64,000 bases of DNA. Source: a virus. The notes beneath the pieces are model-generated. The model was not told the origin of the DNA. It was given only the letters and a program-made list of their open reading frames with translations, and ran no database searches. Shown one piece after another: positions 9,113 to 50,644 of this stretch; position 1 is the stretch's first letter; each line of letters opens with the position of its first letter. The position numbers were made by a program, and so were the translations under genes. The stretch is from positions 32,001 through 96,000 of IMG/VR virus record IMGVR_UViG_3300045988_181536; one strand, 5' to 3'.

Positions 9113-9118
9113 TAAATT

Positions 9119-15987: not shown

Positions 15988-16310
15988 AAATAGACGATTT
16001 TGCAAAAGCAACAATTGAAAACGTTTTAGATTTTATACAGGGAAAACCTTATAAATCTTTAAGCGAAATTGTTTCCGGAGATAATGACATTACATCTGCA
16101 GTAATGTTATTGCGAGCGGAGGCTGAAGGACTGGAAACATCTAAAGATCCTATTGAATATCAATTTGCTTTTGCATTAAAGCGAGATACCGTAAGCAGAT
16201 ATGCTTCTCGCAAACTTTTGTATAAAGCCGGATTGGACAAGAAGTTATATAATGCCAATTTAATGCAGGCTACATCGTTAATCAATAAAAAAATGAATGG
16301 AACTAATTAA
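15984..16310 (+). CDS. hypothetical protein
   Basis: 108 aa. Overlaps the stop of the sigma gene (ATGA). Confidence 0.4.
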   Translation: MKIDDFAKATIENVLDFIQGKPYKSLSEIVSGDNDITSAVMLLRAEAEGLETSKDPIEYQFAFALKRDTVSRYASRKLLYKAGLDKKLYNANLMQATSLINKKMNGTN

Positions 16311-16315
16311 TAATA

Positions 16316-16879
16316 ATGAGTGCTATACAACAATTTAAATATCTTTGCGATGTTCCAAACCCTGCAGAATCAAGCTCCCCTGTATTTAATGGGGGAGTTA
16401 AATTAAATTTTGCCAGTGCGGTTAAGCCTAATATAACCGAAGATATCACTTTTGATTTTGATAATTTGGTTTATGGTAAAGACGCTACCATCCAAGATGC
16501 GATGGTTAATATAGGAACACGGCAAGGGAGCAATCCGTTGAACGAAGATGAAGGTACAACCTTGCAAGAAGATACTTTGAATTATGCGTTAGTTAGCTCA
16601 AATTATTTAACGCATACTTGCAATTTTGCAGGATCGGATACGAAGTTTTTTGAAAATCAATCCATAGGTTCCCTGAATAATATATTAGCCGATTACTTTA
16701 ATTCCCAACAAACAACAGTGCAATCTACGGTTGAAGCAAATACGACTTATGTAAATTCTATCACGGACTTAGTAGTAACACCGTATAAATTTACCTATGA
16801 TAAAGCTATATTAACGTTGCAGTTTACGTTTGACGACCAAACCATAATCGGTGAAATTGAATTAAACGCAGAATTTTAA
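16316..16879 (+). CDS. hypothetical structural protein
   Basis: 187-aa ORF. Confidence 0.4.
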   Translation: MSAIQQFKYLCDVPNPAESSSPVFNGGVKLNFASAVKPNITEDITFDFDNLVYGKDATIQDAMVNIGTRQGSNPLNEDEGTTLQEDTLNYALVSSNYLTHTCNFAGSDTKFFENQSIGSLNNILADYFNSQQTTVQSTVEANTTYVNSITDLVVTPYKFTYDKAILTLQFTFDDQTIIGEIELNAEF

Positions 16880-16882
16880 AAA

Positions 16883-20685: not shown

Positions 20686-20688
20686 AAA

Positions 20689-21135
20689 ATGAGCGCCCCA
20701 TCAAATAATACCAGTGTTACGTTAACCAAGTCTGATACGACCAAGACCGACTTGTCTTGGATTGCCAATATAAGCGGTTTTCCTGTAAAAGTAACTGCTA
20801 CTGGAACAGGAATGCTTGAAGGAGGTTATGTATTTGTCAAACAATTGACGGGAACAGGTTTAGATCCTAACCAAGGCGATATGTTTAATAGAATTGCATC
20901 CGTGCCTGATATAACGGATTTGCCTACTATTGAAACTATAGAAAGTATGAATGAATCCGATATTCAAGGATTAATTACGCCGTTTTATAGGGATAACACA
21001 ATAGAACTATTTTTTGAAACTCCGGAACTTGCAGAAAGAGGTTGGCAAATAATTAAATCCGATACACAATTATTGGTAGATAATTTAAAATTAATAGATG
21101 TTATTCAACCCTCTGAAACTATAACCATTTCTTGA
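20689..21135 (+). CDS. hypothetical structural protein
   Basis: 148-aa ORF. Confidence 0.4.
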   Translation: MSAPSNNTSVTLTKSDTTKTDLSWIANISGFPVKVTATGTGMLEGGYVFVKQLTGTGLDPNQGDMFNRIASVPDITDLPTIETIESMNESDIQGLITPFYRDNTIELFFETPELAERGWQIIKSDTQLLVDNLKLIDVIQPSETITIS

Positions 21136-21138
21136 CGT

Positions 21139-21858
21139 ATGAGTAGCGGCAGTGACGAAATTTGTTATGTAACAGCATTACCTGGCATTATGGATCCTTC
21201 TACATCCGAGGTTGGATCATCGTCTAAAAATTCTGCCAATAAGGAGTACACAGATCCTAACGGGGATTTAAATATTTTCATAGACGGTCCTTATAATGCA
21301 GCTGAAACGGATTTTGACAGTTTGCGATTTAAGGTTTTTATATCCAAAGAAGATGCCAGAAACAAATGTGTTGTTTTAGATAAAACTTCAGCGGCGGCAT
21401 CGAGTGACGACGAGTCAATTGATCCTACGGAAGTAATTATTTATTACGAAACGGATGACAGTAATGCTGATTACGAAAATTTATATTTAAGAATCAAACA
21501 TCAACAATTAATGTTGGCACGCGGCACATATGTAGTTCGTGTATTTAAAAAAGTTCTGGAAGATGCTAATGAGGAAGATGATACCACGGATGGTTATGAA
21601 CAAATCCGTGTGTTTACCTTAACTGTAAGGTCAAATCCCATTCAAGGAAACTGTGTTAACAACAAATATTTATCTACTGCGTTTCAAGGAGGCAATTTAA
21701 TCAATCGGGGCGACGGGTGGAATGACTATAATAAATCTTGCGGTTGCGGCAGCATTTCTGTTGCAAAACAATTAATGGCTTTAGGTTATTGTAAAATAAG
21801 CCAAGAATTGGATGAAATAAATGGCGAGCAACCTAACGATCAGGAGACCAATCCTTAA
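21139..21858 (+). CDS. hypothetical protein
   Basis: 239-aa ORF. Confidence 0.4.
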   Translation: MSSGSDEICYVTALPGIMDPSTSEVGSSSKNSANKEYTDPNGDLNIFIDGPYNAAETDFDSLRFKVFISKEDARNKCVVLDKTSAAASSDDESIDPTEVIIYYETDDSNADYENLYLRIKHQQLMLARGTYVVRVFKKVLEDANEEDDTTDGYEQIRVFTLTVRSNPIQGNCVNNKYLSTAFQGGNLINRGDGWNDYNKSCGCGSISVAKQLMALGYCKISQELDEINGEQPNDQETNP

Positions 21859-23498
21859 TGTCCGAATGTTTAACTCCAACAAATTGTAAAGCAAAGTCTT
21901 TAGTAACAAAATGCGGTAGCGTATCTGAAAAGTTTGCATATCTGATGCAGACTAAAGATTTAATGCGTAAAATGTTAATTTCCAAAGGTCAAGATGTGCC
22001 TAAGGACTTGCCTTTTCGCGATTATATAGAAAAGATTGCTGCTTTAGTTCCTACCACGGATGTCGTTACTTCTATAATTGATTATAAAGGCGACACCCAT
22101 AAAGGCGATGTAACTGTAGATAAAAACTTTATTAATTTATCTAATGTAGACAATACTGCCGATATTGATAAACCGATTTCGACGGCAACGCAGGAAGCTT
22201 TAGATTTAAAGCAAAATATTACTGACGATAGTCTGGAGACTGAGGCTAAAACAATTGTCGGCGCTATTAACGAATTAGACGGTGAAGTTGCAACTAACAC
22301 TGCAAACATAGGAACACTGCAAACCACTGTCGGTAATGCAGAATCCGGTCTCGTAAAAGACGTTGCTGATAACACTAAGGCAATTGGAACCTTACAAACC
22401 TCACTTGCAGGCAAGCAAGATGCCATGATATCGGTTAACATTCAAGGCGAAGCTAAAACGACAATCCCTGATGCTTTAACTTCCTTAGATACAGCTCTTA
22501 CCGCAGTTAAAACAACTGCTGATGGCGCCGCTAAGGTTGATGCGTCCAATATCGTACCGGCTACGTGGAAAGGCGTTTTAGGTTATCAGTCAGCCAGTGA
22601 TGTAAGCGCAGCTGTCATTGCGGGTGTTACAACCAATACCTATGATGACAATCTGGATACCACGGCCAAGACAATTGTCGGTGCCATTAATGAAATCAAT
22701 ACCAGTAATTCTGGAAAACAAGACAGCAGCATTTCTATAGAGGGTATAACTGCTGACACTGTTGAAGGTGCTTTGACTGAACTTGATACGGATATATCTG
22801 CGTTGCAAAATAAGACGCAGAATATAAGTCAAGCTTCATCCGGATCTACTCAGTTTACTGGAACAGTCCAAGCTGATACGTTTTCGGGCACCACGATTAG
22901 TGGACAAACGATCACAGCAGGTACCCAGTTAACTGTTAATGGCTCAGTAACGGGTTCTGCCATTCAGACCACACTAAGCGCTTCTTCGACGGATCAACAG
23001 CTGCCTTCTGCGAAAGCTGTATACGACGGCTTGGCTGCAAAGCAAGATGCACTGACATACTATGAAGAAAGTACAGCTAGCGGTGGTTCCGTAACCGTAG
23101 GCGCTACCACACAAGCTGAAACTCCTCCGAGTGCTGTAACAGTAGCTAATGCTAATATAAGCGTACAGCTAACCACCTCAACGTTAGATACAATTAACAC
23201 AAATGGTGGCATAGTAAATCGTGAAACTGCTTTTAAATCGACGAGTCAAACAGGGTCGATTACCATACCATCAAATGTTAGTAGCTTGGCCGGATACAAA
23301 GTCGTATTTGACACCATAGCGTCAGAGGGTGGCGCCAAGTCCCGTACGGTCTTTGAATATGATGCAACTAATAACGTTTGGTATCGTGAAGTAATATTTG
23401 GAACAGGCACTTCAATTACTTCGATGAGTGGTGGCACTGTAAACTATGATTTAGGTGTTGCTGTTAGCAGCGCTAATATTGTGGTTTCCATGCTTTAA
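21858..23498 (+). CDS. tail fibre protein
   Basis: Ala/Thr/Gly-rich beta-rich fibre composition. Two internal copies of the module (E/D)T(E/T)AKTIVGAINE(L/I), a module also present three times in the next gene. Hairpin terminator downstream. Confidence 0.55.
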   Translation: MSECLTPTNCKAKSLVTKCGSVSEKFAYLMQTKDLMRKMLISKGQDVPKDLPFRDYIEKIAALVPTTDVVTSIIDYKGDTHKGDVTVDKNFINLSNVDNTADIDKPISTATQEALDLKQNITDDSLETEAKTIVGAINELDGEVATNTANIGTLQTTVGNAESGLVKDVADNTKAIGTLQTSLAGKQDAMISVNIQGEAKTTIPDALTSLDTALTAVKTTADGAAKVDASNIVPATWKGVLGYQSASDVSAAVIAGVTTNTYDDNLDTTAKTIVGAINEINTSNSGKQDSSISIEGITADTVEGALTELDTDISALQNKTQNISQASSGSTQFTGTVQADTFSGTTISGQTITAGTQLTVNGSVTGSAIQTTLSASSTDQQLPSAKAVYDGLAAKQDALTYYEESTASGGSVTVGATTQAETPPSAVTVANANISVQLTTSTLDTINTNGGIVNRETAFKSTSQTGSITIPSNVSSLAGYKVVFDTIASEGGAKSRTVFEYDATNNVWYREVIFGTGTSITSMSGGTVNYDLGVAVSSANIVVSML

Positions 23499-23520
23499 AC
23501 GTAAATCATATTATTTCTTA

Positions 23521-23553
23521 CAACTCCGAGAGGTTTCTCTCGGAGTTTTTTGT
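23521..23553 (+). terminator. rho-independent terminator
   Basis: aactccgagaggtttctctcggagtt followed by ttttttg. Confidence 0.6.
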
Positions 23554-23605
23554 TGCATTCTGATTACGCCTATGGCAAGCTAAACATAAATTCCATTAAA
23601 ACTAA

Positions 23606-26600
23606 ATGAGTACTCCTGTTACCACTTACGATAAACGACCTGTAATTGTTTCTCCCACTGCTCCAACATCTTTGGAACAATTAAGATATTTATGGTTAGA
23701 TATTTCTGAAACGACTCCTGTATTAAGATACTATAATAGTACCGGAATATGGGAAGCTATAAATGGTATCGATACCAGTAGTTTCTTAACAACCAATGGC
23801 GTTCAAACAATTACCGGAGCTAAGACCTTTAATACAGGAACCATTACAGTAGCGGATATTACTGTAAACGATGTTACTATAGAAGGTATCGATACCATTA
23901 AACTTACAGATGACGATACACATGTTCCGACATCTAAATTAGTAGAAGATACCTTGGTTAGTGCTATTTCCGGTTTAGAAACTTCTATTGATGGAAAATT
24001 AGCAACAAAAGCAAATACTGCTGACGTAGTATTAAAGACTGATATATCCACATCTATCCCAAGCGCAGGTGCAGTTGACACTAAGGTTGCTTCAGAAAAA
24101 GCTGTTGCAGATAGCTTAACAGCAAAGCAGAATACTCTTAAGTATTATTCTGAAGGAACTAATACTGTAACAATTGAGACACCAATTTACCCAAATACTA
24201 ATGTGTCCATCAAAGCCGGTGCTACTGGTTTAGAAATGGGGCATGGTTCCTCGGGTACCTCAACAACAGTGAAGCTTGGTGTTTTCAGCGCGGACACAGT
24301 ATCCCAGGGACTCACTGTCGCAGGGGGAGACGTAGATATTGTAGGTGACTTCCATATAAATGGATCTAGCCCCGACGTTACTACAATTGTTGATAGCATA
24401 AACATGGAAGGTGGTGGGGAAAATGCATTACCTACTGCAAACGCCGTGCGTGTTGCTGTTAACCAAATAAAGACCGACTTAGGATCAGCATTAACCTATA
24501 AGGGCAGTGTTGATACCTATGATCAACTCCCAGAAGAAGCTGCAGTAGGTGACACATGGAATGTTGCACAAGCATATCAAACATACCCCGCAGGTACAAA
24601 CTATGCGTGGACTGGCACCGCTTGGGACGCACTTGGTGGCTCGGTAGACCTCAGTGGATATCAAACAAAGTCAGATGATACACTTGCCACTTCTGCTAAA
24701 ACTGTGGTGGGTGCTATCAATGAAGTTAATACTACATTATCAAACAAACAAAATAAATTACTTTATTATTCTGAAACACCAGGAGATGCTCCTTCTGCTA
24801 CTATTTCTGTAACGAATATTAATCTTAGAGGTAGTGTTGCTGAAGGTTATAGTACAACCGCTTCAGGTCTATATTCTCATGCTGAAGGAAGTGGGACTGA
24901 AGCATCTGGAAATTATTCGCACTCTGAAGGATATAATACAAAAGCGAGTGCTAATTTTCAACATGTTTTAGGATTTTATAATATTGAAGATACTAATATT
25001 ACGCCATATATACCTGAAACAGCAAATCCTGTAGATACTAAAGGAATATATGCAACTATCATAGGTAATGGTCATTCAATTGATGAAAGAAGTAATGCTC
25101 AAACTGTATCTTGGACAGGTATTACTTGGTCTCAAACAGACGTAAGAGCTGGGGGAACCGATCAGGATTCAGCTACACATTCTTTAGCAGCTAAACAAAA
25201 TGCTACAGATAATTCACTTGAAACTACAGACAAAACTATTGTAGGAGCTATCAATGAATTAAAAACAGACAAACAGAACACATTAAAATATTATAGTGAG
25301 TCAGACTCTTCCACAGATCCATCCAGTAATAATGCGCAGGTTTCCATATCGGTAGGTTCTGATTATGAAGGAACTTTGAACTTAGGATCAGACTCTAGTA
25401 ATGGGATTCAAACTATTAATATTGGAGGTAGCGCAAACACTCGAAATATAAATATCGGTACAAAAGTTTGTGGAGAGAATAATACCGTTACAATTGGAAA
25501 TACCTCGGATGGTGTGTCCCTTACTATTAATGCACAGAGATCTCTTACATTAAATACTTCAGAAAACAGTGACCTACAGGGAACTGGAATTGCTAGAGAA
25601 GTAGCAGAAGCACCTACTAACAGAAAGCTTACCACAGAAAAAGCGGTTGCCTATAACACAAGCTTTAAAAAGGAAATAAATAAAATATATTTTAATAGTG
25701 GTAAGATTAATAATGACGTATTTCAACTTCCAAAGTTTCCTTTTACTATATGTGTAACGTGCAAGGTAGATAGTTGGTATTTTGATGTGTCAGAGAATGG
25801 ACAGCCTCTATTTCAGTTTGGAAATGGTTATAGAGTGACTACTTCCCCATGGGGGGGATTATATTTCCGTGATAATACTGATAGCCCTAAGGTTGCACTT
25901 GCTATCAGTGGAAGTACCACGGGAAACGAAACATACTTGTCAGAATATTTTGCGAGTTTAGGTAATATCGACGATTTTCTTGGAAAAAAACATACTATAG
26001 TTGCCATTGCAAGAGATCCAGGTGATAATCCCACGCGTCCGAATTGGAATATCTATTTAGACGGAGTAGAGGTTACAACTATCGCAGGTGCATCCAATAA
26101 GTTTAACGAAAACGCCACACCTCTTAATGTTCCTACACATTTTGTGGTAAATACAAGCAATCTAAACTTCTGGAATCAGCCAGCTTCAGACAATCCCCTT
26201 GAAATTTATGATATTAGTCTTTTTGATTTTGATTTGTCTGAAGAAGGAAGTGCATATAGTGTTTTAGATTACGCAAATGGCAAACTTATACCGCCAGAGT
26301 TATATGTAGAAGACATAACGTCTACATCTAATAAGCTTTGGTTTAAAGTTGATCCACAAATTTATGAATTTGGTGGAAAAAGAATATTAAAAGATCTTTC
26401 ACTGCATGGATTCGACTGCTATGTGTCCACAGCAGATAACACTGTGGCTACAGATGCAGATGCATCATATGACACTTTAATGAGTAAGGTGGATGACCAT
26501 CTTCTACCAAGCTGGATAGATAAAAAGGCTTCGCCTCAGCTTTATCTAGAACGCGGGGTTCTAAGTGTGCCAGAACTTGCCAATTATCCATTTAAATGGC

Positions 26601-28372
26601 CATTAACCTTAGCAATAGAATATGAGTTAGAATCTCTCACCGTAGGAAATGCTACAAATCAAAATTGTGTTTTCTTTAACTACTGGGATATTGAATGGAG
26701 TGACCCTGCACAACTCAAAGGATTTCGTTTAGAACTGATAGATAATGGAAGGCTATATTTATATTTAGGACATCCAAATGAGATAATATCTACAGAGCAA
26801 TTTGTAGCGTATACAACCAACGGAGGTAAAGGCATACCTACTGGAAAGCATACGATTGTGGTATGCATAGGTGGAGAAGTTGTAAATGGAGGCCCAGAGT
26901 ATCTTAAGATGTATCTAGATGGAAATGAACTAGATACTACTGTGGTAACGAAAACATTAAGTGGAAATAATCTTGCAGGAACAAGACCCCTGAGCATATG
27001 CAGTACTTGGAACTACTCTAATCCATCAACAACAGGAGGCGTATTAGTACCAATTAACATAGCAAGACCTTATATTTTTAACTTTAGAATAGATGACAAC
27101 TATACTCCATACACTCTTGAGGATTATGTTAAAGGTGTATGCTTGCCCGCAGAGATAACTCTCGGAAATCCAAATTTTACGTTTGGATCTATTTATGGTA
27201 ATGGTTGGTCAACAACAGACAACGGAACAAAAATAACTGTAACAAGTGCAAATACAACTTGGCCTGCTTTGTTTGCTAATGTGATTCCAAGGGGTTACTG
27301 CTGGAAATCCATATTAGACGTGAATCTAACATTTTCTGGAAACGCGGTGTTTGAAATATACACCCAATGCAAAAAAACTTACATTGAAGTTTATAATTAT
27401 TCCACCGGGGTAACAACCTTGTTTAGCTCCACAGGAAGAGAAGGAGGATGGGGCGGAGGAAATCCCTTTGGATTAAGCAGCTCTGGTCATTATAAAATAA
27501 CAATTTATGGTCACTATTCTACTGGTAAAAATACTGCAAATTTTGCAATAGGTCCTTTATCAAGTGGCACAATAACACGCACTGAAGTTAATCTGCAGTA
27601 CACAATTTTAGCCCCAGAGTCTTATACCATAACGGAGTATGACCAAGTAGATATAGCTTCACCATCTACATATAGTAATATGCAGATACGCTCAGTTGCA
27701 AGCAAGGTTTCAACTTCGATAAGCGGCGATGAAATAAAAATTACTGTAAATGAAGATTTGTCAGGTAATGCTTTGGCAATTTACTTCCCTGGATATGCGG
27801 AAATCGGAACCGAAAGATCATTATCCAGTGTCATAACCAGTCTAAGTGATTCTATTAAATCTATATATATTAGAGCTGCTCAAAATCAAAACTCAGATTT
27901 TGGTAGCCCATCTATGGTATTAACCTCTGACGTTCCGCAAAGAAGTATGACATTTTCTGAAGCAACTTCCATTAGCGGTATAGGGGTTACAATTTTATAT
28001 AACGGGTCAAATATATCTTCTGGTACTGTATTTACAATTAAAGGGCTACAAGTATCTGCAGACACACGTAAGATTATACCGGATTCTTCTGGAAATAATT
28101 ATACGGTGCTTGCTGTTGAATCTGGAAATATTAGTGGCACCAATGAGTATTGGACTGGTATAGTACGGGGTACTTCTGACAATGCACTATCTGTAACTGA
28201 GACTGCATTAAAAAAGAAACCACTAACATCTTTACAATTTAATGTGTATGGTACGGACAAAAAAATAATACCAGGAAAATATATGCGCTTAATATTTTCA
28301 CAAGATAGCAATGGCAATGTAACTCCAACATATATTTCTGAAGAAGAATGGAATGACGTTTATGACGTATAG
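23606..28372 (+). CDS. large tail fibre / receptor-binding protein with lectin-like C-terminal domains
   Basis: 1588 aa. N-terminal fibre region carries TSAKTVVGAINEV and TTDKTIVGAINEL modules. Tail-fibre repeats SHAEGSGTEASGNYSHSEGYNTKAS. Two C-terminal LamG/pentraxin-like jelly-roll segments (KHTIVAIARDPGDNPTRPNWNIYLDGVEV; KHTIVVCIGGEVVNGGPEYLKMYLDGNEL). Confidence 0.6.
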   Translation: MSTPVTTYDKRPVIVSPTAPTSLEQLRYLWLDISETTPVLRYYNSTGIWEAINGIDTSSFLTTNGVQTITGAKTFNTGTITVADITVNDVTIEGIDTIKLTDDDTHVPTSKLVEDTLVSAISGLETSIDGKLATKANTADVVLKTDISTSIPSAGAVDTKVASEKAVADSLTAKQNTLKYYSEGTNTVTIETPIYPNTNVSIKAGATGLEMGHGSSGTSTTVKLGVFSADTVSQGLTVAGGDVDIVGDFHINGSSPDVTTIVDSINMEGGGENALPTANAVRVAVNQIKTDLGSALTYKGSVDTYDQLPEEAAVGDTWNVAQAYQTYPAGTNYAWTGTAWDALGGSVDLSGYQTKSDDTLATSAKTVVGAINEVNTTLSNKQNKLLYYSETPGDAPSATISVTNINLRGSVAEGYSTTASGLYSHAEGSGTEASGNYSHSEGYNTKASANFQHVLGFYNIEDTNITPYIPETANPVDTKGIYATIIGNGHSIDERSNAQTVSWTGITWSQTDVRAGGTDQDSATHSLAAKQNATDNSLETTDKTIVGAINELKTDKQNTLKYYSESDSSTDPSSNNAQVSISVGSDYEGTLNLGSDSSNGIQTINIGGSANTRNINIGTKVCGENNTVTIGNTSDGVSLTINAQRSLTLNTSENSDLQGTGIAREVAEAPTNRKLTTEKAVAYNTSFKKEINKIYFNSGKINNDVFQLPKFPFTICVTCKVDSWYFDVSENGQPLFQFGNGYRVTTSPWGGLYFRDNTDSPKVALAISGSTTGNETYLSEYFASLGNIDDFLGKKHTIVAIARDPGDNPTRPNWNIYLDGVEVTTIAGASNKFNENATPLNVPTHFVVNTSNLNFWNQPASDNPLEIYDISLFDFDLSEEGSAYSVLDYANGKLIPPELYVEDITSTSNKLWFKVDPQIYEFGGKRILKDLSLHGFDCYVSTADNTVATDADASYDTLMSKVDDHLLPSWIDKKASPQLYLERGVLSVPELANYPFKWPLTLAIEYELESLTVGNATNQNCVFFNYWDIEWSDPAQLKGFRLELIDNGRLYLYLGHPNEIISTEQFVAYTTNGGKGIPTGKHTIVVCIGGEVVNGGPEYLKMYLDGNELDTTVVTKTLSGNNLAGTRPLSICSTWNYSNPSTTGGVLVPINIARPYIFNFRIDDNYTPYTLEDYVKGVCLPAEITLGNPNFTFGSIYGNGWSTTDNGTKITVTSANTTWPALFANVIPRGYCWKSILDVNLTFSGNAVFEIYTQCKKTYIEVYNYSTGVTTLFSSTGREGGWGGGNPFGLSSSGHYKITIYGHYSTGKNTANFAIGPLSSGTITRTEVNLQYTILAPESYTITEYDQVDIASPSTYSNMQIRSVASKVSTSISGDEIKITVNEDLSGNALAIYFPGYAEIGTERSLSSVITSLSDSIKSIYIRAAQNQNSDFGSPSMVLTSDVPQRSMTFSEATSISGIGVTILYNGSNISSGTVFTIKGLQVSADTRKIIPDSSGNNYTVLAVESGNISGTNEYWTGIVRGTSDNALSVTETALKKKPLTSLQFNVYGTDKKIIPGKYMRLIFSQDSNGNVTPTYISEEEWNDVYDV

Positions 28373-28379
28373 ATAAAAC

Positions 28380-28402
28380 AAGCCCACGCTTTAAAGCGTG
28401 GG
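28380..28402 (+). terminator. hairpin terminator
   Basis: gcccacgctttaaagcgtgggc, perfect 9-bp stem. Weak T tract. Confidence 0.4.
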
Positions 28403-28426
28403 CAAATTTGAAATAAATAAAAAGAA

Positions 28427-31400
28427 ATGAGAATAAAAACTATTGAGAATATAATTGATAGCGTTGATCCTTATTTTATCTTAAAGGATCTGGGATTTTC
28501 CATTGGTCAGAAGCCCGCAAAACAAATTATTGATTATACACTGCGTAATTGCTCGGCTAATAATTATGGCGATACCGGAGCTGAAGAAGCGGATTTAATT
28601 TTAAAAGAATCTACATTAGAAGATTTGCCGGTTGATTCAGCTGATGCTATGGAGGCATATTACGCAAAGATCAACGGCAATTTATTACGCGTGTTGCCAT
28701 TTGGGTATTTGAATATAGACACATTATTTCAATTATCTAATACGCAAGAATTTTTGCCATTGGAAAAACTGGAAGATAAGATGTTTGTCGCAGGCACTTC
28801 CATAGACATGCTGGCGTATTATATGCGGGGGGACTATACAAAAGCCTTTAAAATCTTTTTTAAATATTATGGCGTGCAACTTAAAAGCAAACTTTTGCAT
28901 GAGCCAGCATACGTAGAAAAAGCATTAAAGCATATCCTTATTAAACGCAGAAACGTTTTAAATATAATTGTAGCATCTTTATTCGCCCAACCATCCGAAT
29001 TGTCTCATCAATTTGTTGAAACAAAAAAATGGATGCATCGCGGCAATATCCGAAGCATCAAAGGCATAGGTTTTCCGATAGATTCAGTGCATTTGTTTTA
29101 TATGCTGAAATTTATTGCCGACAATAACGTGCTGTCTTATGCGCCGGAAATTATTTCTTTGGATCAGCAAGATTTAAAAGTTAAAGAAGACAATAGCAGT
29201 TTTGCGTCTTTTATAAATGGCAAGCTGTTTAAAGAAAGCAACGAATGGATCGTTGTGCCTTATTTTGCGGACTATCACATCATTAATAGTTTAAAATTTA
29301 TTAATCCCAGAAATAACAGCTGTTATCAGGTTTATTTAAACAACTATAAAAATTCTTTTGCAGGCATTTATGCTTTAGATCCGCATATTGATTTTAACAA
29401 TACCAAAGTACGCGTATTAGAAAATGTATATGAAGCTATCGTGTTGCATAATTATGCCAAGGAATGCTTGGAATTAGAAGCAAACAACCAGTGTTATATC
29501 GCTGTAGATTTAAATACAAATGAACCGAATAATCTTCGTTCAAATCTAAGCGCATTTAGAAAACTGATATTTTTAAATGATTATAACAGCAGTTTGCAAA
29601 CAATCAAATCTTTGCATGACTCTTTATTGTTAAAAGACAGCACTGATGCAGATTTGTATATCTGCGATTATCACGGGTATAAAGAAGACAATTATTTATA
29701 TACCTATAACGCTTTTGTTGAAAACAAATATAAAACCTTAATTATTAATGCAGCAAGAACCACGGCTACGGGTGTTTCGTCGGAACTGCAATATTTGATG
29801 AATATTTTTGACGTTAATCAGCTGCCATTTAAACGCCGACTATTTGAATGGATAAAAGAAAATAATTATACAACTGTGTTGCAAAAACTTAACGCCATGT
29901 CCAGGGAGATGGTAGAGTTTAACAATTTTGTTATTTGGGAAACATCGGACGGATATATTGTCGAACCTAAAGACGACCCTTCCAATACCCAAATTCTTTC
30001 TAACTTTATTATAAAAGTTGATCAAAATATTATCTTTAAGGATTCAGAGGAGATAATACATAAAGGTCGTTTAATTATGGGCGGCGATCAAGAATACGCT
30101 ATTGCCTTTAGCAAAAAAGATTTATTAAAAAAATCAGCCATCGAAGATCTGGCTTTAAAGGCTTATACAAGATTTACCGTAACAAACTTAATTGAAGACG
30201 ATGAAAATATTAAGTTAAATTTGCCAACTTTATTTGAAGGAAGCGACAGTCCTTTTTATAAAAATTTAATCAGCGTTATCAGGCATAATATCAATAAAGC
30301 GCCCTGTAAATATGGAACGCTTTCTCTTGGATGGGATCGAGCAAATGGCGTGTATACTGCATTAGCATGGCAGGCGACTGCATTAAAGTTTAACTTAAAA
30401 AGCCAAAATGTGTTTTCGTTTTTATCCAGCCAAAGTAATGACACTGTAGAATGCATGAGCAAGGATTTAAAACTATGTTTTTCGTCCGACGTGCCCGTGC
30501 GCATGAGCTATAAAAAATACGCAAAGTTCTTAAATTCGGGGGTTAGGGATATCATAAGTTATATCATATCCGTATTTTATAGGCAATTTTTAGGATATAA
30601 TACAAAACCTTTATACGTTTATGACTCTGTAAACGCACGCAATTTAATTAAGTTTATATTTTTAGCATTAGGCCAGATTGCGCCATTTAATGTGCCGACA
30701 AACGACAGATTTATTAAATCTAAAAAATTGTTTAATGGATTAAACGAATATCCCGTTTATTTGCGTTGTAAAAATATGGCGCTTTTATCTGAAACATATC
30801 CCGAGTATCCTTATGTAATATTTGTTACACAAGATAATGTAACTGAGGATAATGAAAAGGAAATTTATAACGTTAATTACGGCTTAACCGCGCAAGCGTA
30901 TAAACAAGTAACTAAATTTGCATTGGATTCGTTAAGCAGATTTTTTAAATGGATGTTTAGCGTTAATGTTGAAGAATTTGCTTTAGATGATCAGATTGCC
31001 AGCAATGGATTACAGCTGATTGAAGAGGGCAATTTAATTTTTAATTATCTGTGGTGGGATAACGTTTTGGTTGCTTGTCAGTCGGAGATTAATCCTACGG
31101 CGGCATTAAGGGATTTATTAATGTCCATGACGCTTAGGCAGGTAATGGGACATTTATCTTATTATCCAAAAGGCGCCAATGGCAATGGGCAATATGTATT
31201 TAGAAAGGCTATGTTGCCGGAGGGATTAACAGCGAAAGCCCATACCCTTGTATATAATTGTCGTAAACATAAACTGGGGGCATATATTAAGCAACAAAGT
31301 AATGAATCATGGTGTAGCGTTTATTACGCTATGAATAAAGAATTTGTCGAAGATGTTCTGCAAGATGTAATGACCAAAGACGGTTATCCTATCAGACCCG

Positions 31401-31513
31401 AAGAATTAAAAATATTTGTGGAATCGGGAGTGGTATTGCAACTTACCGAATGGAAAAAGCCCGCACGTGTTGTTGATCGTGAAGTATTTGAGTCTGCGCA
31501 ACGAACAAGTTGA
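28427..31513 (+). CDS. large hypothetical protein
   Basis: 1028-aa ORF with a strong SD-like sequence upstream. No recognisable motif. Confidence 0.45.
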   Translation: MRIKTIENIIDSVDPYFILKDLGFSIGQKPAKQIIDYTLRNCSANNYGDTGAEEADLILKESTLEDLPVDSADAMEAYYAKINGNLLRVLPFGYLNIDTLFQLSNTQEFLPLEKLEDKMFVAGTSIDMLAYYMRGDYTKAFKIFFKYYGVQLKSKLLHEPAYVEKALKHILIKRRNVLNIIVASLFAQPSELSHQFVETKKWMHRGNIRSIKGIGFPIDSVHLFYMLKFIADNNVLSYAPEIISLDQQDLKVKEDNSSFASFINGKLFKESNEWIVVPYFADYHIINSLKFINPRNNSCYQVYLNNYKNSFAGIYALDPHIDFNNTKVRVLENVYEAIVLHNYAKECLELEANNQCYIAVDLNTNEPNNLRSNLSAFRKLIFLNDYNSSLQTIKSLHDSLLLKDSTDADLYICDYHGYKEDNYLYTYNAFVENKYKTLIINAARTTATGVSSELQYLMNIFDVNQLPFKRRLFEWIKENNYTTVLQKLNAMSREMVEFNNFVIWETSDGYIVEPKDDPSNTQILSNFIIKVDQNIIFKDSEEIIHKGRLIMGGDQEYAIAFSKKDLLKKSAIEDLALKAYTRFTVTNLIEDDENIKLNLPTLFEGSDSPFYKNLISVIRHNINKAPCKYGTLSLGWDRANGVYTALAWQATALKFNLKSQNVFSFLSSQSNDTVECMSKDLKLCFSSDVPVRMSYKKYAKFLNSGVRDIISYIISVFYRQFLGYNTKPLYVYDSVNARNLIKFIFLALGQIAPFNVPTNDRFIKSKKLFNGLNEYPVYLRCKNMALLSETYPEYPYVIFVTQDNVTEDNEKEIYNVNYGLTAQAYKQVTKFALDSLSRFFKWMFSVNVEEFALDDQIASNGLQLIEEGNLIFNYLWWDNVLVACQSEINPTAALRDLLMSMTLRQVMGHLSYYPKGANGNGQYVFRKAMLPEGLTAKAHTLVYNCRKHKLGAYIKQQSNESWCSVYYAMNKEFVEDVLQDVMTKDGYPIRPEELKIFVESGVVLQLTEWKKPARVVDREVFESAQRTS

Positions 31514-31541
31514 AAAACTTTAAATAATTATGGTATATATA
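31510..31541 (+). promoter_or_regulatory. promoter TTGAAA-N-GGTATATATA
   Basis: -35-like ttgaaa and ggtatatata about 85 nt upstream of the 31625 ATG. The same architecture recurs at 32424 and 32784. Confidence 0.45.
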
Positions 31542-31624
31542 CCTAGAAAGGACATGTTAACTTTGACATACACTTTAAATAAACTGTTTAAAGTGGGAAA
31601 TACGTAAAGTTAGCATAAAAAATT

Positions 31625-32353
31625 ATGAACAATTGGAAAAAATATATTATAGAGTTTATTGCAGTAGTTATGGTTATTATAACTACTGGTTTTATCTCCT
31701 TGCATGTTAGAGAGTGGATAGCAAAATCTAAAACAAATACATCTCGGCTATTCAATTCTAAAAAATTCCTTGAGGAGCTGCCTCTTCATTATGACAATAA
31801 GCTACCCGCTGAGACAATTATATGCGACGATGAAATCTCGTTAACTCGCAGGGACAAACGAGCTATTTTGTTTGATGCTTTGTCGGATTATGTTGCAGCC
31901 AAAACATCTTATATGTTGTCCAACTGGCACAGCGATAATAAGACCATTGTCGTTAACTCTAGCCTTAAAGAAATTGCTGTGGAGCTGATGCGCAAAGATG
32001 TCATCGGCGATATGCCTAGCGTTTCTAAAGCGTTGGAGGATTCCGGCAATATGGCTTCTAAATTAATTGAAGAACAGAAGCAACTGCAACTGCAGAACAA
32101 AAACTATGTTACCGCAGAGGATATAATTATGTATTCGGAGTATTACAAAGAGCTATCTGAAAAATGTAAGTTGTTTGAAAATGCCGGATATAAGAAAGCC
32201 TTTTTAGCGGACGCTATAGGATATGGAATGCTAAAAGGTATAAGAACTGTAGCTGATAACATTGTTTGTTCAGAGGGATCAAAAATTGCCGTTAGAGTTT
32301 ATGACGCTACTGCATATTTAAATGAACAAATGCTAAAGTACTTGAATTTCTAA
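31625..32353 (+). CDS. membrane-anchored protein (N-terminal TM)
   Basis: N-terminal hydrophobic helix YIIEFIAVVMVIITTGFISL. Confidence 0.4.
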   Translation: MNNWKKYIIEFIAVVMVIITTGFISLHVREWIAKSKTNTSRLFNSKKFLEELPLHYDNKLPAETIICDDEISLTRRDKRAILFDALSDYVAAKTSYMLSNWHSDNKTIVVNSSLKEIAVELMRKDVIGDMPSVSKALEDSGNMASKLIEEQKQLQLQNKNYVTAEDIIMYSEYYKELSEKCKLFENAGYKKAFLADAIGYGMLKGIRTVADNIVCSEGSKIAVRVYDATAYLNEQMLKYLNF

Positions 32354-32375
32354 TATTTTAGTAGTTGTTTAATAA

Positions 32376-32409
32376 CTGCGACTTCCTTATATGAAGTCGC
32401 AGTTATTTT
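32376..32409 (+). terminator. rho-independent terminator
   Basis: aactgcgacttccttatatgaagtcgcagtt followed by attttttt. Confidence 0.65.
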
Positions 32410-32423
32410 TTTAATTATTACTA

Positions 32424-32455
32424 TTGAAAAAATTTAAATTTTTGCGGTATATATA
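32424..32455 (+). promoter_or_regulatory. promoter TTGAAA-N18-TATATATA
   Basis: ttgaaa at 32424-32429, 18-nt spacer, then ggtatatataat containing an overlapping TATAAT. Confidence 0.5.
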
Positions 32456-32540
32456 ATTGTGTAAGCTTTGAAGATAAATTCAGAGGATCGCGCGATGCTC
32501 TTTTTTTTTAATTTTTAATTTAACCATAGCTAAAAAAAAA

Positions 32541-32780
32541 ATGAAATATTTTAAATACTTGTTTTTATTAATATGTCCACTATTCCTTAGTAATGCCAAT
32601 GCGCAAGAATCTGTAATTATTAACGGACATACGCATATTGCCGTAACAGTCTTTGTCAACGGACAACCTAAAAAGATTTGGACGCATGATCCAAATGCTT
32701 GCGCAAAATGCACGCTGGATAAATTAAAAGAAACGAATCGGCAAATATTAAATCACTGGTATGGCGCTAAAAAGCCTTAG
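32541..32780 (+). CDS. small secreted protein (signal peptide)
   Basis: N-terminus MKYFKYLFLLICPLFLSNANAQE is a typical Sec signal. 79 aa. Confidence 0.4.
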   Translation: MKYFKYLFLLICPLFLSNANAQESVIINGHTHIAVTVFVNGQPKKIWTHDPNACAKCTLDKLKETNRQILNHWYGAKKP

Positions 32781-32783
32781 CAT

Positions 32784-32815
32784 GTGAAAAAATACCTTTA
32801 TTTGAGGTATATATA
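32784..32815 (+). promoter_or_regulatory. promoter GTGAAA-N17-GGTATATATA
   Basis: Third copy of the ggtatatata motif, upstream of the 32909 ATG. Confidence 0.4.
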
Positions 32816-32908
32816 TTTAGAAAAGTATTATTAACTTTAAGATGTGAAATATTATTCGATATTTCGCATTTTTTTTACTAATAACAAAAAAAAAAGAAAA
32901 GACCAAAA

Positions 32909-33427
32909 ATGGAAATAACTATAAATATCAATGGTAATTCTGAATATGAACTTTATAACGAGTTCATGGATAAATTACTTAAACTTCGCAAAAGTAATAA
33001 GACTGCAAAGACAACTGAGAAAAGATTTTTTTCTAAGCGCAGTCTTAGGGAACAATTTAAAACTATTCCGCCCTTCTGCATTAAAACTGCGGAATCGGTA
33101 TTTCCTGCAGAATATAAAGATATAGCAAAAGATTCCAAAAAACTTTGGCCTTTTGTTAACAATCTCAGAACTGCAAGATTTATCAAAACCTGTGGTTATA
33201 CAAAACCGAAAGGTTCAACGAGACTTTATGTCTCTTATTGCGGAGTGGACTATGATCCCGATAAAGCGTTTACAGTGGAAGCAGACGGCACAGTGTCTGT
33301 TGATCCACAGTTGCTTAATTGGAATCCATTCTCGCTTGGCGGAGATCTCGGTACGATAAAACCGGGGCACAATCTTATTATAGCAACCTCGGGTGTAATT
33401 GTTTCAAAGGAATTTGCCAATGAATAA
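32909..33427 (+). CDS. hypothetical protein
   Basis: 172-aa ORF. Confidence 0.4.
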   Translation: MEITININGNSEYELYNEFMDKLLKLRKSNKTAKTTEKRFFSKRSLREQFKTIPPFCIKTAESVFPAEYKDIAKDSKKLWPFVNNLRTARFIKTCGYTKPKGSTRLYVSYCGVDYDPDKAFTVEADGTVSVDPQLLNWNPFSLGGDLGTIKPGHNLIIATSGVIVSKEFANE

Positions 33428-33716
33428 CCGCAATACTTGGACTACGGCCAAGTTTCAAAAACGCTTAAAAGAATTTATGCGGGATAATCCGGATTTAACC
33501 GAATCTGAGGCCTGCAGTATTCTTGGAAAGCGTGGCGCTGAAAACCGTAAAAAATCACAACTATCACGTTGTGAAAAACAAAAGTCAGCGTCAGTGAATA
33601 TCCAAAATTTTACTGTAAATTTCTACTTGACGGAAGGTGATGGATATCACATAAAGGGAAAAATTAAAAACAAAAAATCCACTGGCAATAATGCGCAGCT
33701 GGAATTTGATTTCTAA
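33420..33716 (+). CDS. hypothetical basic protein
   Basis: Start moved to the ATGA overlap with the upstream stop (MNNRNTW...). Lys/Arg-rich. Confidence 0.35.
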   Translation: MNNRNTWTTAKFQKRLKEFMRDNPDLTESEACSILGKRGAENRKKSQLSRCEKQKSASVNIQNFTVNFYLTEGDGYHIKGKIKNKKSTGNNAQLEFDF

Positions 33717-33732
33717 TTTTTCCTTGCAATAT

Positions 33733-33803
33733 AGTCGCATGGTGTAATGGTAGCACAGATGATTTTGGTTCATTTAGTCTAGGTTCAAACCCTAGTGCGA
33801 CTA
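33733..33803 (+). tRNA. tRNA-Gln (anticodon TTG)
   Basis: Acceptor AGTCGCA/TGCGACT (7 bp). D-arm GTGT-AATGGTA-GCAC. Anticodon stem GATGA/TCATT with loop TTTTGGT. T-arm CTAGG-TTCAAAC-CCTAG. 71 nt, no encoded CCA. Confidence 0.8.
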
Positions 33804-33819
33804 TTGTTCTTTTTCAAAC

Positions 33820-34184
33820 GTCCTGGTGGCGAAACAGGTATACGCAGCAGACTTGACAATAATACAAAGGGTCGCCTACGAGAAATCGCTAGGTAAGCAT
33901 TCCGCGAATTGCTGGAACAGCCTTAGAGTCTCACAAACTACAACGTGGTTGGAAACGACGAGCGTGAAGGTTATAAAATTGTGGGAATTGGCCAATCAGC
34001 AGCCAAGGTCCGTTTAGGACAAGGTTCAGAGACTATGTACGGAACATCTAAACGATTTTATAAATCGCATGATGAAGATATAGTCCAATCAGAACATATT
34101 ATTATGGTTTGAGAAATCAAACAATCTGATGTAAAATCTGCTATCCGAAGGGATATGAGGGTTCGAGTCCCTCCCAGGACACCA
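33820..34184 (+). tRNA. tRNA-Leu (anticodon TAA) interrupted by a group I intron (exons 33820-33853 and 34132-34184, CCA encoded)
   Basis: Acceptor GTCCTGG/CCAGGAC. Discriminator A73 is the Leu identity element. D-arm GCG-AAACAGGTATA-CGC. Anticodon stem GCAGA/TCTGC split by the intron. Long variable arm ATCCGAAGGGAT. T-arm GAGGG-TTCGAGT-CCCTC. Spliced loop CTTAAAA gives anticodon UAA. Confidence 0.75.
33854..34131 (+). ncRNA. group I self-splicing intron in the tRNA-Leu(UAA) anticodon loop
   Basis: Core elements P AATTGCTGGAA (33907-33917), Q AATCAGCAGCC (33995-34005), R GTTCAGAGACTA (34024-34035), S AAGATATAGTCC (34075-34086). IGS GGGTC (33869-33873) can pair with exon GACU to give the U.G pair at the 5' splice site. 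Intron ends in G (omega-G, 34131). 278 nt, no ORF of consequence. Confidence 0.75.
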
Positions 34185-37963: not shown

Positions 37964-38659
37964 ATGCAATTTTCGCCTAAATTTTACACGAACATATTTC
38001 AACATACAATTACCATTCCAATTCCTCCGGTGCATAACAGCACGGAGAAATTTTTTATCGATTTAACTTTTACCGAATGGCAGCTTAGCGAATGGTTTAA
38101 AAATAGCTGGCATGCGACTTGGGAAAACTTAAAATCAATGTTTATTCCCGGATATAAGTTTTGCATGAATTATATCGGTATTAAGTTTACCGTTTATGAA
38201 GAAGTCTTAGACGAGCATGGGTTTCGGCAAAACAAGTTAAAATTTGAAACCAATAAAGTATTTGAAAAAGATAACCCCGAAGCGGTGTTAAACGCCATGA
38301 CAACCCTATTCGGGCCCTTGTTTTATTGCGTAAATGCTGCATCTGACCAGTGTCAAACAATATCAAAATGGGGCATATCCTTTGCAAATCAGAAAACCGA
38401 TCAACAAAATTCGGAAGAACACGTAGCTAAAAAGTCTGATTTTAGTTATGTTATGGCAATCTATACGGATCCTGAGCATCATGAAATCAGTTGGGTAATC
38501 AGCCGCACGCATAAAAATATTTATTTTGCGTTTAGATTTAGTTCAGTAGCAGATTTAAAGTCTGTTTGCAGGGAAATCGAAAACGCTTTTGCGGATTTTT
38601 TCAACAATTATTATCCGAGTTTGCGTGTGTATAAGCCGATAATTGCGCCAATTGCATGA
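37964..38659 (+). CDS. hypothetical protein
   Basis: 231-aa ORF. Confidence 0.4.
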   Translation: MQFSPKFYTNIFQHTITIPIPPVHNSTEKFFIDLTFTEWQLSEWFKNSWHATWENLKSMFIPGYKFCMNYIGIKFTVYEEVLDEHGFRQNKLKFETNKVFEKDNPEAVLNAMTTLFGPLFYCVNAASDQCQTISKWGISFANQKTDQQNSEEHVAKKSDFSYVMAIYTDPEHHEISWVISRTHKNIYFAFRFSSVADLKSVCREIENAFADFFNNYYPSLRVYKPIIAPIA

Positions 38660-38796
38660 AACCGATATTAAGATCGCTGATTAACCAAGCCATCCGTGCA
38701 AAATCTATTTTACAGACGGGTCGAGCATTTCATGCCACCATCGCTTTAAAAGGAAGCAAAGTAATAGCTATCGGATGTCAACTACTCACCAGATGA
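38656..38796 (+). pseudogene. N-terminal fragment of a CDA-fold (dCMP/TadA-like) deaminase truncated by IS insertion
   Basis: MKPILRSLINQAIRAKSILQTGRAFHATIALKGSKVIAIGC resembles the deaminase N-terminal strand/helix. Reading frame runs into the IS end at about 38776 and terminates. Confidence 0.35.
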
Positions 38797-40136
38797 ACTA
38801 GTGAGCTTGATTTATATGTTTAAATCAATTTTAGACACTTCATTGCTTATGCTTGTTAAATCCTTAGTAGGCTTATCAAGTCTTATTTCAGCTCCATGTC
38901 TGTAATCATCCGTTGCAGATGATAGGATTGTTAATCCTCTTGTTAAAATATTTTTAGCAGCATTAACATCTCTGTCTAAAACTGTTCCGCATTGGGGACA
39001 TACCCAAAATCTATCTTTTAAAGTTAGGCTTTGATTAATATATCCGCAATTATGACAAGTTTTTGACGAAGGGTAAAAATGGTCTATTTTAATTATCTTC
39101 TTACCTTTCCATGCTGCTTTATATTCTAATTTTTGTATCATGCTATTCCAAGAGACATCTGCAATAGCATAAGCCAATTTATGATTTTGCATCATATTTT
39201 TAACAGCTAATGTCTCTAAACAAATTACATCATATTTGTTTAACAACAAGGTACTTAGTTTATGTTGCATATCTTCACGAGAATTGGTTATCTTTTCATG
39301 AAGTTTTGCTATTTTAATTCTAAGTTTTTCTTTTCTATTAGAACCTTTTTGTTTTTTGGAAAAGTGTTTTTGAAGCTTGGATAGTTTTGATTGATATTTC
39401 TTTTGAAATTTTAAGTTGGGATATCGTTTACCATCAGATGTTATAGCAAAATCTTTAATTCCCAAATCTATGCCCACTGCTTTTGTTAAATCTGCAGCAT
39501 CAGGAATACATACGTTTTGTTCTGTTAAAATAGAAACATAATATTTGCCTGACGGTTTTTTAGAAATTGTCGCACTACAAATTTTACCTTTTAAAGGTCT
39601 ATGATTAACAAACTTTATACCGTTCTTAAATTTGGGAATATATATTTTATCATTTTTAATAGCTACATTCTGTGGAACATTAAAAGAATTGTTTCCGTCT
39701 TTACGTTTAAACTTGGGAAATTTAGACTTTTTACTAAAGAATTTTCCAAAAGCCGTTTCTAAATTTTTTAATGATTGTTGAAGGCTTTGGGAATTAACAT
39801 CTTTTAACCACACATATTCCTTTTGCTTTTTAAGTGTAGTTAGAGCTTGTGAGCAATTATTGTAATTTAAAGTCTTTTTATTTTTAAGGTAAAATTCCTG
39901 TTTCTCTTTAAGAAAGTAATTATATACAAATCGGCAATGCCCAAAATGCAATGATAATAGTTCTTTGTCTTCAGGTGAGGGGTAAAGCCTATATTTATAG
40001 GATTTGTATATTGTTTTATTCATTATTTAAGTTAAACTAAAAACTACTTAGAATCAAATAGCAACAAAAAAAAATAAGAATCTATAATAACTTAAACAAA
40101 ACCCCACCATTCATCTTACCAGACAAGCTGGTAAGT
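38776..40136 (-). mobile_element. IS200/IS605-family insertion element carrying tnpB only (IS1341-like)
   Basis: TnpB ORF flanked by subterminal hairpins: ctcaccagatgaactagtgag (38783-38803) at the 3' end and cttaccagacaagctggtaag (40115-40135) at the 5' end. No tnpA. Flanking sequence on both sides encodes pieces of one deaminase-like gene. Confidence 0.6.
38812..40023 (-). CDS. tnpB: TnpB (OrfB) RNA-guided endonuclease / IS605-family transposase accessory protein
   Basis: N-terminal OrfB_IS605 HTH (YKYRLYPSPEDKELLSLHFGHCRFVYNY), RuvC-like core, C-terminal zinc ribbon CHNCGYINQSLTLKDRFWVCPQCGTVLDRDVNAAKNI. Confidence 0.8.
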   Translation of the reverse strand: MNKTIYKSYKYRLYPSPEDKELLSLHFGHCRFVYNYFLKEKQEFYLKNKKTLNYNNCSQALTTLKKQKEYVWLKDVNSQSLQQSLKNLETAFGKFFSKKSKFPKFKRKDGNNSFNVPQNVAIKNDKIYIPKFKNGIKFVNHRPLKGKICSATISKKPSGKYYVSILTEQNVCIPDAADLTKAVGIDLGIKDFAITSDGKRYPNLKFQKKYQSKLSKLQKHFSKKQKGSNRKEKLRIKIAKLHEKITNSREDMQHKLSTLLLNKYDVICLETLAVKNMMQNHKLAYAIADVSWNSMIQKLEYKAAWKGKKIIKIDHFYPSSKTCHNCGYINQSLTLKDRFWVCPQCGTVLDRDVNAAKNILTRGLTILSSATDDYRHGAEIRLDKPTKDLTSISNEVSKIDLNI

Positions 40137-40139
40137 TTT

Positions 40140-40319
40140 CTGGTGGAAATTAATAAAATTACGATTGTTAACCTAAGAATTGATAACAATAACCAAGTAG
40201 CAAACGCAAAACCTTGTGTAAACTGTCAACGAGTTTTAAAACAATTTAATTTTAAACATATTTTTTATACCAATGAGCAAGGGCAATTTGAAGAGTTTAA
40301 GATTGCGGTCGAAGATTAA
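40140..40319 (+). pseudogene. C-terminal fragment of the CDA-fold deaminase
   Basis: ...ANAKPCVNCQRVLKQFNFKHIFYTNEQG... contains the PCxxC zinc-binding motif of cytidine/dCMP/tRNA-adenosine deaminases. In frame from the IS boundary to a stop at 40319. Confidence 0.4.
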
Positions 40320-50491: not shown

Positions 50492-50612
50492 CATACCCAG
50501 TTGTTAAGTATATCTTAAGAACTGGGTGTAAAATAATGATATATAGCAACATAGAAAGTTCTGACCTATGAAGTTGATATGTCAACTACGCACCAAATGA
50601 ACTGGTGAGTTT
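50492..50612. mobile_element. IS605-family-like solo end / miniature palindromic element
   Basis: tgtcaactacgcaccaaatgaactggtgagttttctg closely matches the tnpB-element end tgtcaactactcaccagatgaactagtgag. The gttttctg tail matches ggtaagttttctgg at the other IS end. An additional hairpin catacccagtt...aactgggtgta lies just upstream. Confidence 0.4.
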
Positions 50613-50644
50613 TCTGAATTAAACAATATAAAAAGTTTGAACCT

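Follow-up and report, generated by a model that had tools for sequence, protein, structure and literature searches.

A tnpB-only IS200/IS605-family element and a flanking deletion in a deaminase-fold gene of a phage

In the 64-kb stretch of viral DNA analysed here (IMG/VR record IMGVR_UViG_3300045988_181536, positions 32,001 to 96,000; hereafter the window), a tnpB gene on the minus strand is bracketed by two short open reading frames (ORFs) on the plus strand. A preliminary description read this arrangement as a tnpB-only IS605-family element inserted into a cytidine-deaminase-fold gene, part of which might also be missing. The locus raises the question of whether the two flanking pieces are the remains of one gene and, if so, what broke it and how the rest was lost. 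We find that the deaminase gene is dead in the window, split by the element, which we call IS-1, and deprived of its catalytic HSE segment; the loss consists of the insertion together with a deletion of 138 bp, which lies on the guide side of the element, at its right end (RE). With a probability that we put at about 0.85, and that applies to its identity and anatomy, IS-1 is a non-autonomous, tnpB-only, IS1341-like insertion sequence of the IS200/IS605 family that lies antisense within the deaminase gene and is accompanied by a deletion.

One deaminase gene in two pieces

The three ORFs lie where the preliminary description placed them: an N-terminal fragment of 46 aa (38656..38796, plus strand), tnpB (38812..40023, minus strand) and a C-terminal fragment of 58 aa (40143..40319, plus strand). 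In four related metagenomic phage contigs (L009, at 6693-7118, and L001-L003), the gap between an upstream 231-aa gene and a downstream 100-aa gene is filled by an uninterrupted gene of 141 aa (426 bp), which is seen on more than 50 contigs and is for that reason unlikely to be an artefact of fusion. These four contigs supply the empty site that had been expected in related phages. By BLAST, the flanks of the window align to positions 1-214 (99.5% identity) and 353-701 (93.4%) of the empty-site reference, which are L009 6600-6813 and 6952-7300. The N-terminal remnant of the gene (38656..38776, plus strand) comprises codons 1-40 and one further nucleotide, and the C-terminal remnant (40153..40319, plus strand) runs from the second base of codon 87 to the stop and holds a PCVNC motif. 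Because the flanks align collinearly to the intact 141-aa orthologue, the two fragments are one gene (codons 1-40 and 87-141), and not two unrelated small ORFs.

The window lacks the 138 bp that correspond to L009 6814..6951, codons 41-87 with H71-S72-E73 among them. Of the deaminase motifs its copy retains PCVNC only, the HSE being deleted, and the suspicion voiced earlier, that the catalytic segment had gone with part of the gene, proves right. A clean insertion at the left-end (LE) junction of the window would set GATAATCATC... beside RE; RE actually abuts ATCCGATAGC, 138 bp further on, and the N-terminal ORF continues into the element as ...GCQLLTR*. Comparison of the fragments with deaminase profiles, the check first proposed, is of little help: the C-terminal fragment alone reaches PF00383 at E=0.077 (profile positions 70-100) and the N-terminal fragment alone has no Pfam match. 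It is the orthology to the 141-aa gene that settles the point.

That the intact protein is zinc-dependent and adopts a cytidine-deaminase (CDA) fold is well supported by its motifs and predicted structure. The L009 sequence includes ...GLHSEIACIKQ...AKPCVNCQRVL..., and H71-S72-E73 and P107-C108-x-x-C111 are invariant in a 10-member family alignment in which identity falls to 36%. PF00383 matches the L009 protein at E=1e-4 and 22.6 bits, below the gathering threshold of 25, and four homologues, 44-69% identical, carry a precomputed match to the same profile. The PHROG ‘dCMP deaminase’ (deoxycytidine monophosphate deaminase) matches the intact protein at E=3e-4, and the family profile matches the Streptococcus mutans dCMP deaminase 2hvv at E=2e-4. 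With an AlphaFold (AF2) model of the intact protein (predicted local distance difference test, pLDDT, 77.3; predicted template modelling score, pTM, 0.73), the top 50 Foldseek matches listed from the PDB are all cytidine, blasticidin-S or dCMP deaminases, the top 42 of them at a probability of at least 0.99 and a TM score of about 0.5. The protein is named deoxycytidylate deaminase at NCBI (DAF78938.1), and a thymidylate kinase gene lies two genes upstream, in a nucleotide-metabolism cluster. The earlier label ‘dCMP/TadA-like’ therefore holds in so far as dCMP deaminases are among the best matches, together with cytidine and blasticidin-S deaminases, and is too specific in that the Pfam score stays below threshold and the substrate is not fixed. 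The protein shares the zinc-ligand motifs H-x-E and PCxxC and the predicted CDA fold with phage and bacterial dCMP and cytidine deaminases such as those of cyanophage S-TIM5 (4p9c), S. mutans (2hvv) and Bacillus subtilis (CDA, 1jtk), and has a thymidylate kinase as its neighbour here; unlike them, it has HSE in place of HAE or CAE, and an insert of about 25 aa (residues 46-68) that is poorly modelled.

Damage to the gene is not confined to alleles with a transposon. One allele without any (P0016) has a frameshifted form of 170 aa, fused to an out-of-frame downstream ORF, and another (P0005), from a lineage 69% identical, has lost about 19 residues in frame before PCxxC. Since it is broken in many genomes, the gene seems to be dispensable.

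The element and its ends

IS-1 occupies 38777..40152 on the minus strand (1,376 bp), with ends drawn from the empty sites and from insertions in two related contigs, L075 and L007, and it is the single full copy within the window. Its tnpB encodes a 403-aa protein that Pfam, PHROG and structural matches identify as an RNA-guided RuvC nuclease: it matches HTH_OrfB_IS605, OrfB_IS605 and Cas12f1-like_TNB (PF12323, PF01385 and PF07282) above threshold at E 2e-15 to 2e-25, PHROG 506 at E=1e-132, and the ISDra2 TnpB structures 8h1j and 8exa at E of about 1e-82, with residues 7-381 aligned. In an alignment to 9yyg, the RuvC contexts GIDLGIKDF, ICLETL and LDRDVNAAKNI and a CxxC..CxxC zinc finger are all present. 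We take these RuvC motifs to correspond to D191, E278 and D361 of ISDra2 TnpB.

Both ends are those of the family. The RE is a non-coding tail (38777..38811, minus strand) with a hairpin, CTCACTAG-TTCAT-CTGGTGAG, at 38785..38805 and a terminal TAGTTGAC at 38777..38784; read on the minus strand, in the sense of tnpB, it ends ...GCTCACTAG-TTCAT-CTGGTGAG-TAGTTGAC at 38777. The LE (40024..40152, minus strand) is likewise non-coding, and a repeat search finds in it a nested hairpin, CCACCA..CTTACCAG-CTTGT-CTGGTAAG..TGGTGG, at 40104..40146. On the minus strand the LE begins TAATTTCCACCAG, after a left flank that ends ...CGTAATTTTAT; the same LE is found in L007, L012, L013 and L015. The hairpins of the two ends are alike (CTTACCAG and CTCACCAG), and there are no terminal inverted repeats. 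The pentanucleotide TTTAT lies immediately 5' of the LE (40153..40157, minus strand), and it stands before the LE at all six full-length junctions (the window, L007, L012/13, L015, L027 and L075). Because it precedes the LE at every such junction, which is the IS200/IS605 pattern, we predict TTTAT to be the target and transposon-adjacent motif. Two of these insertions are clean. In L075, IS-1 stands at TTTAT|ACACGC in the deaminase gene, after codon 76 and with nothing deleted. In L007 it is the neighbouring gene, of 100 aa, that is interrupted, at TTTAT|TCGTATAAT, by IS-1b, a sister element with a 75% identical TnpB. Removing the element from either contig restores contiguous wild-type sequence, with no target-site duplication.

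What speaks against this classification is the matter of a transposase. No Y1 (HUH) TnpA was found by tblastn in the element or the 64-kb window, and none cognate to these ends was found in the window, the related loci or bacterial genomes; the only nearby TnpA in relatives belongs to a second element, IS-2, whose hairpins differ. The lack of tnpA in cis is the defining feature of the tnpB-only subgroup. A scan for promoters and terminators gave nothing above shuffled expectation. Domains, hairpins, target motif and missing tnpA all bear out the preliminary description of a tnpB-only IS605-family element, and IS-1 has every tested feature of such IS200/IS605 elements, its omega-RNA as a prediction, except an identifiable transposase source.

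Could tnpB instead be a domesticated, immobile gene that the phage keeps for some other function, such as regulation or defence against competitors? The missing tnpA, in the element and in the window, would fit this, as would the intact TnpB ORF in every copy seen (403, 401 or 399 aa) and the presence of the exact TnpB protein on 22 contigs. However, presence or absence of the element varies among near-identical genomes, and the element recurs with the same ends elsewhere, also in reverse (L012/13, L018 and L075). Its ends and target motif are canonical, its insertions clean, and it has destroyed a gene rather than taken up a fixed intergenic position, so that domestication appears to us very unlikely. 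Less likely still, to the point of being negligible, is that two small, unrelated genes flank the element, or that the element is an IStron with a splicing group I intron. Such readings could draw on the want of a significant Pfam match to either fragment alone, and on the presence of a group I intron elsewhere in the window, but both fragments are collinear parts of the intact 141-aa orthologue, and the HSE catalytic segment is physically missing. The IStron we reject, since tnpB is antisense to the gene and no group I ribozyme (Intron_gpI) is found in 38600-40300 at E up to 10.

Alleles and the origin of the deletion

Related phages hold at least seven versions of the deaminase gene. That of the window is shared by L004, L011, L023 and L024 (allele a). 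L008 has the LE junction of the window and an RE flank that begins 14-16 bp further on, after ATTAC in the wild type (allele b). L022 has no mismatch to the window in more than 3 kb and has lost a further 146 bp, into the 231-aa gene (allele c); its junction reads GTTGA(T)ACACACGC, which falls after CTTAT if the last base of RE is read as T and otherwise after CTTA. The clean insertion of L075 lies at another TTTAT (allele d). Two versions involve IS-2, an unrelated IS200/IS605 element that encodes a TnpB of 340 aa together with a divergent Y1 TnpA of 148 aa, and that lies in the deaminase gene at a canonical TTAC, about 65 bp further downstream than the insertion in the window: in L005 (7038-8590) and L006 it is cleanly inserted at TTAC (allele e), and in L010 the LE junction is as in allele e and 283 bp are deleted on the RE side, after TTGC (allele f). 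In L007 a palindromic remnant of 37 nt lies exactly where the window has its RE junction (allele g). This remnant (L007:6814-6850) is a perfect palindrome, GTCAACTACTCACCAG-TTCAT-CTGGTGAGTAGTTGAC, made of two inverted RE tails around one hairpin, and it stands in for the rest of the deaminase gene.

The 1.5-kb stretch that comprises the deaminase gene and the two genes downstream is an insertion hotspot. IS-1b sits in the 100-aa gene of L007 (7108-8440), and L018 has IS-1 reversed at the 3' end of a 98-aa gene (416-434); the RE hairpin and tail recur in L019 with a third type of TnpB. At another place in the genome, one LE junction is common to L012 and L013, and L013 has a loss of about 135 bp beside RE, with its endpoint after ATTAT. 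Shorter derivatives coexist with the full elements. Intact mini-elements of 45-46 nt follow TTTAT in L014/L017 and L008, with a shorter related copy in L016, and a miniature inverted-repeat transposable element (MITE) of about 190 nt with the same ends follows ATTAT in L002. The window itself has a degenerate 46-nt mini-element between genes (50581..50626, minus strand; TTTTTAT|ATTGTTTAATTCAGAAAACTCACCAGTTCATTTGGTGCGTAGTTGAC|ATATC) with an LE start, one hairpin and an RE tail.

How the 138 bp were lost admits two explanations, between which the data do not choose. The one we prefer, tentatively and at slightly less than even odds, is recombination. Two elements of the family in the same orientation, at TTAT-type sites 138 bp apart, would have recombined, leaving the LE junction of site 1 (TTTAT, L009 6952-56) and the guide-side junction of site 2 (GTTAT, L009 6814-18). 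L005 and L006 retain the full 138 bp, and in them the wild-type ATAACAATTATACCAG has given way, exactly at the RE junction of the window, to a 16-nt GTCAACTACTTACCAG, which is an RE tail in reverse complement. Because this footprint is found there, we infer that an element of the IS-1 family once sat at the GTTAT of site 2 independently. Besides the window, L008 (ATTAC), L013 (ATTAT), L022 and, for IS-2, L010 (TTGC) have a replaced guide-side flank behind an unchanged left junction, although the motif is only near-cognate where the junction is unambiguous. The 352-nt wild-type stretch has only seven TTA[TC] sites, and the three endpoints at the deaminase locus each fall after one, a coincidence with a chance of roughly (7/348)^3, a post-hoc estimate that includes L022 with its one-base ambiguity. 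Several observations weigh against recombination. Neither an allele with a clean site-1 insertion nor one with a full site-2 element was found, so both parents are hypothetical, and a metagenome scan for the exact RE-end pattern returned only 6 stretches, with no clean site-1 allele (GTGAGTAGTTGAC+GATAATCATC) among them. In L022 the junction is one base out of place, unless a C-to-T change has occurred there. All five flank rearrangements lie on the RE side, which simple recombination between two copies does not of itself predict.

The alternative, to which we give clearly lower odds, is a deletion catalysed by a transposase. A Y1 TnpA acting in trans would cleave RE and a downstream TTAY on the same single strand and join the 3'-OH of RE behind the motif, leaving the left junction as it was; the other guide-side flank replacements would have come about in this way too. 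This accounts better than recombination for the restriction of all five rearrangements to the RE side at a constant LE junction, and it fits the preservation of RE to the base in the window, L008 and L013 (and of that of IS-2 in L010), with the new flank right after TTAT, TTAC or TTGC. L022 differs from the window only by the extra 146-bp deletion next to RE, which suggests a recent single step, and past activity of a cognate transposase is evident from the 45-46-nt mini-elements and the MITE of about 190 nt, whose ends are the same. On the other hand, that TnpA was found neither in the window nor in the related loci or bacterial genomes, a text search of IS605 papers gave no mention of ‘adjacent deletion’, and the L022 junction is not exactly at the end of RE. 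The footprint in L005 and L006, moreover, shows site 2 to have been occupied independently, which recombination needs and the transposase-catalysed deletion does not. Two further causes were rejected: slippage at microhomology, since its product would lack the terminal GAC of RE, and self-cleavage of the flank by TnpB, which cuts 15-21 nt into the flank, when the deletions start exactly at the end of RE.

Predicted guide RNA, homing and known systems

The preliminary description also placed an omega-RNA 3' of tnpB. A conserved RNA structure is indeed predicted there, and the scaffold appears to be longer than proposed, about 170 nt (38777..38946, minus strand; possibly to 38981), of which 38776-38811 would be only the last hairpin and tail; the overlap with the 3' end of tnpB reaches from roughly codon 360 as far as the stop. 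The alignment comprised the final 250 nt of IS-1 (window, L025 and L018) and of the 70-75% identical sister IS-1b (L027 and L007). The RNAalifold consensus has 71 pairs, with 97.7% of cells paired, and compensatory changes occur in 11 pairs, whereas sliding the partners leaves 0-3. A stem inside the coding region is kept through synonymous changes (ATCATC..GATGAT to ATCGTC..GACGAT), a pair of the RE hairpin goes from C-G to U.G to U-A across IS-1, the window copy and IS-1b, and the structure closes by pairing of about 38942-38946 with the RE tail. These features are suggestive of a conserved structured RNA of about 170 nt that ends exactly at RE. Against this stand the facts that the covariation comes from two lineages and that the structure was derived from the same sequences; no Rfam family matched, either at the gathering threshold or at E up to 10.

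By the established architecture of TnpB and omega-RNA, the predicted guide is the flank directly 3' of RE, ATCCGATAGCTATTAC(TTTG), at 38757..38776 on the minus strand. ATCCGATAGCTATTAC occurs once in the window, which holds no other credible match to the guide. TnpB with its omega-RNA would use the 16-20 nt beyond RE (ATCCGATAGCTATTAC...) as guide and would cut DNA that carries this sequence behind the motif, as the intact alleles do behind GTTAT. In a mixed infection, the cut could then be repaired from the element-bearing genome, which would copy the element together with the deletion into the intact allele. This proposal follows the mechanism of ISDra2 TnpB and the homing model (PMC10055086; review PMC13565253). 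We regard such homing between co-infecting phages as a real possibility that falls a little short of an even chance. In the intact alleles, ATCCGATAGCTATTAC is preceded by GTTAT, one base off the canonical TTTAT, and homing from the allele of the window is on that account unproven. Comparison of flank haplotypes for co-conversion tracts gave a mosaic with no clear signal.

The event itself is of an ordinary kind: TnpB elements are common in phages, and what was inactivated is a non-essential gene of nucleotide metabolism. Its value lies in a natural allelic series within one 426-bp gene of a widespread human-gut phage, made up of an empty site, a clean insertion, a second element with its own TnpA, four guide-side flanks behind one unchanged left junction, and footprints. 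The series could serve to test homing, tolerance for the adjacent motif and natural change of guide, and the part most worth following is the multi-allelic hotspot with its motif-linked replacement of the guide flank. It is conceivable, if rather improbable, that this replacement amounts to recurrent re-programming of the TnpB guide, and that co-infecting phages compete at this locus through RNA-guided gene drives. If so, every derivative would keep a motif-adjacent target in element-free competitors, its new flank starting after TTAT or TTAC, and deletions would remove the targets of rivals, as that of the window removes the TTTAT used by the element of L075.

This phage belongs to a poorly characterised lineage. 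INPHARED phages yielded no megablast match to 37000-42000, and eight of nine large ORFs tested (window 2331..31513 and 57054..59246) have no PHROG match at E<=1e-5. The 231-aa upstream protein recurs unchanged on many metagenomic contigs, which are about 170 kb long and come mostly from human-gut samples, and related sequences are found on three IMG/VR viral contigs. Among deposited phage records, 433 have a TnpB. The bacterial TnpB nearest to that of IS-1 is 48% identical to it, and the nearest relatives, on other viral contigs, are 59-70% identical. Two other features of the window may be recorded. A tRNA-Leu(UAA) gene (33820..34184, plus strand), 16 nt after a tRNA-Gln, is split in its anticodon loop by a group I intron (Rfam 33851-34105, 68.7 bits); it goes uncalled when unspliced, and joining 33820..33853/4 to 34132/3..34184 in silico gives an 87-nt tRNA-Leu(taa) by ARAGORN. 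The 730-aa ORF at 57054..59246 encodes a fusion of polynucleotide kinase/phosphatase and RNA ligase (PHROG 8238, E=2e-185).

Among the known systems closest to IS-1 is ISDra2 of Deinococcus radiodurans (TnpB structures 8h1j and 8exa). As there, the RuvC D-E-D residues and the zinc finger are kept, hairpins lie near the ends, insertion is 3' of a pentanucleotide and leaves the target unduplicated, and a structured RNA, here predicted, overlaps the 3' end of tnpB and ends at RE. The target motif of ISDra2 is TTGAT, against TTTAT here. Unlike ISDra2, IS-1 has no tnpA and resides in a phage genome, and its omega-RNA and cleavage are predictions. With IS1341-type elements it has in common a tnpB that stands alone between IS200/IS605-type ends and depends on a transposase in trans. 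The 45-46-nt and roughly 190-nt derivatives, which share the RE hairpin and tail with it, recall the PATE-like (palindrome-associated transposable element) and MITE-like companions of that type; ‘IS1341-like’ is used here by likeness to the ISfinder IS1341 group. Finally, the predicted behaviour of IS-1 is akin to that of the homing endonuclease genes of T-even phages and to ‘transposon non-restorative homing’ (PMC13565253), in that a phage-borne nuclease would have the element-free allele as its target. Presence/absence variation among close relatives is common to both, and target recognition in the present case would be guided by RNA.

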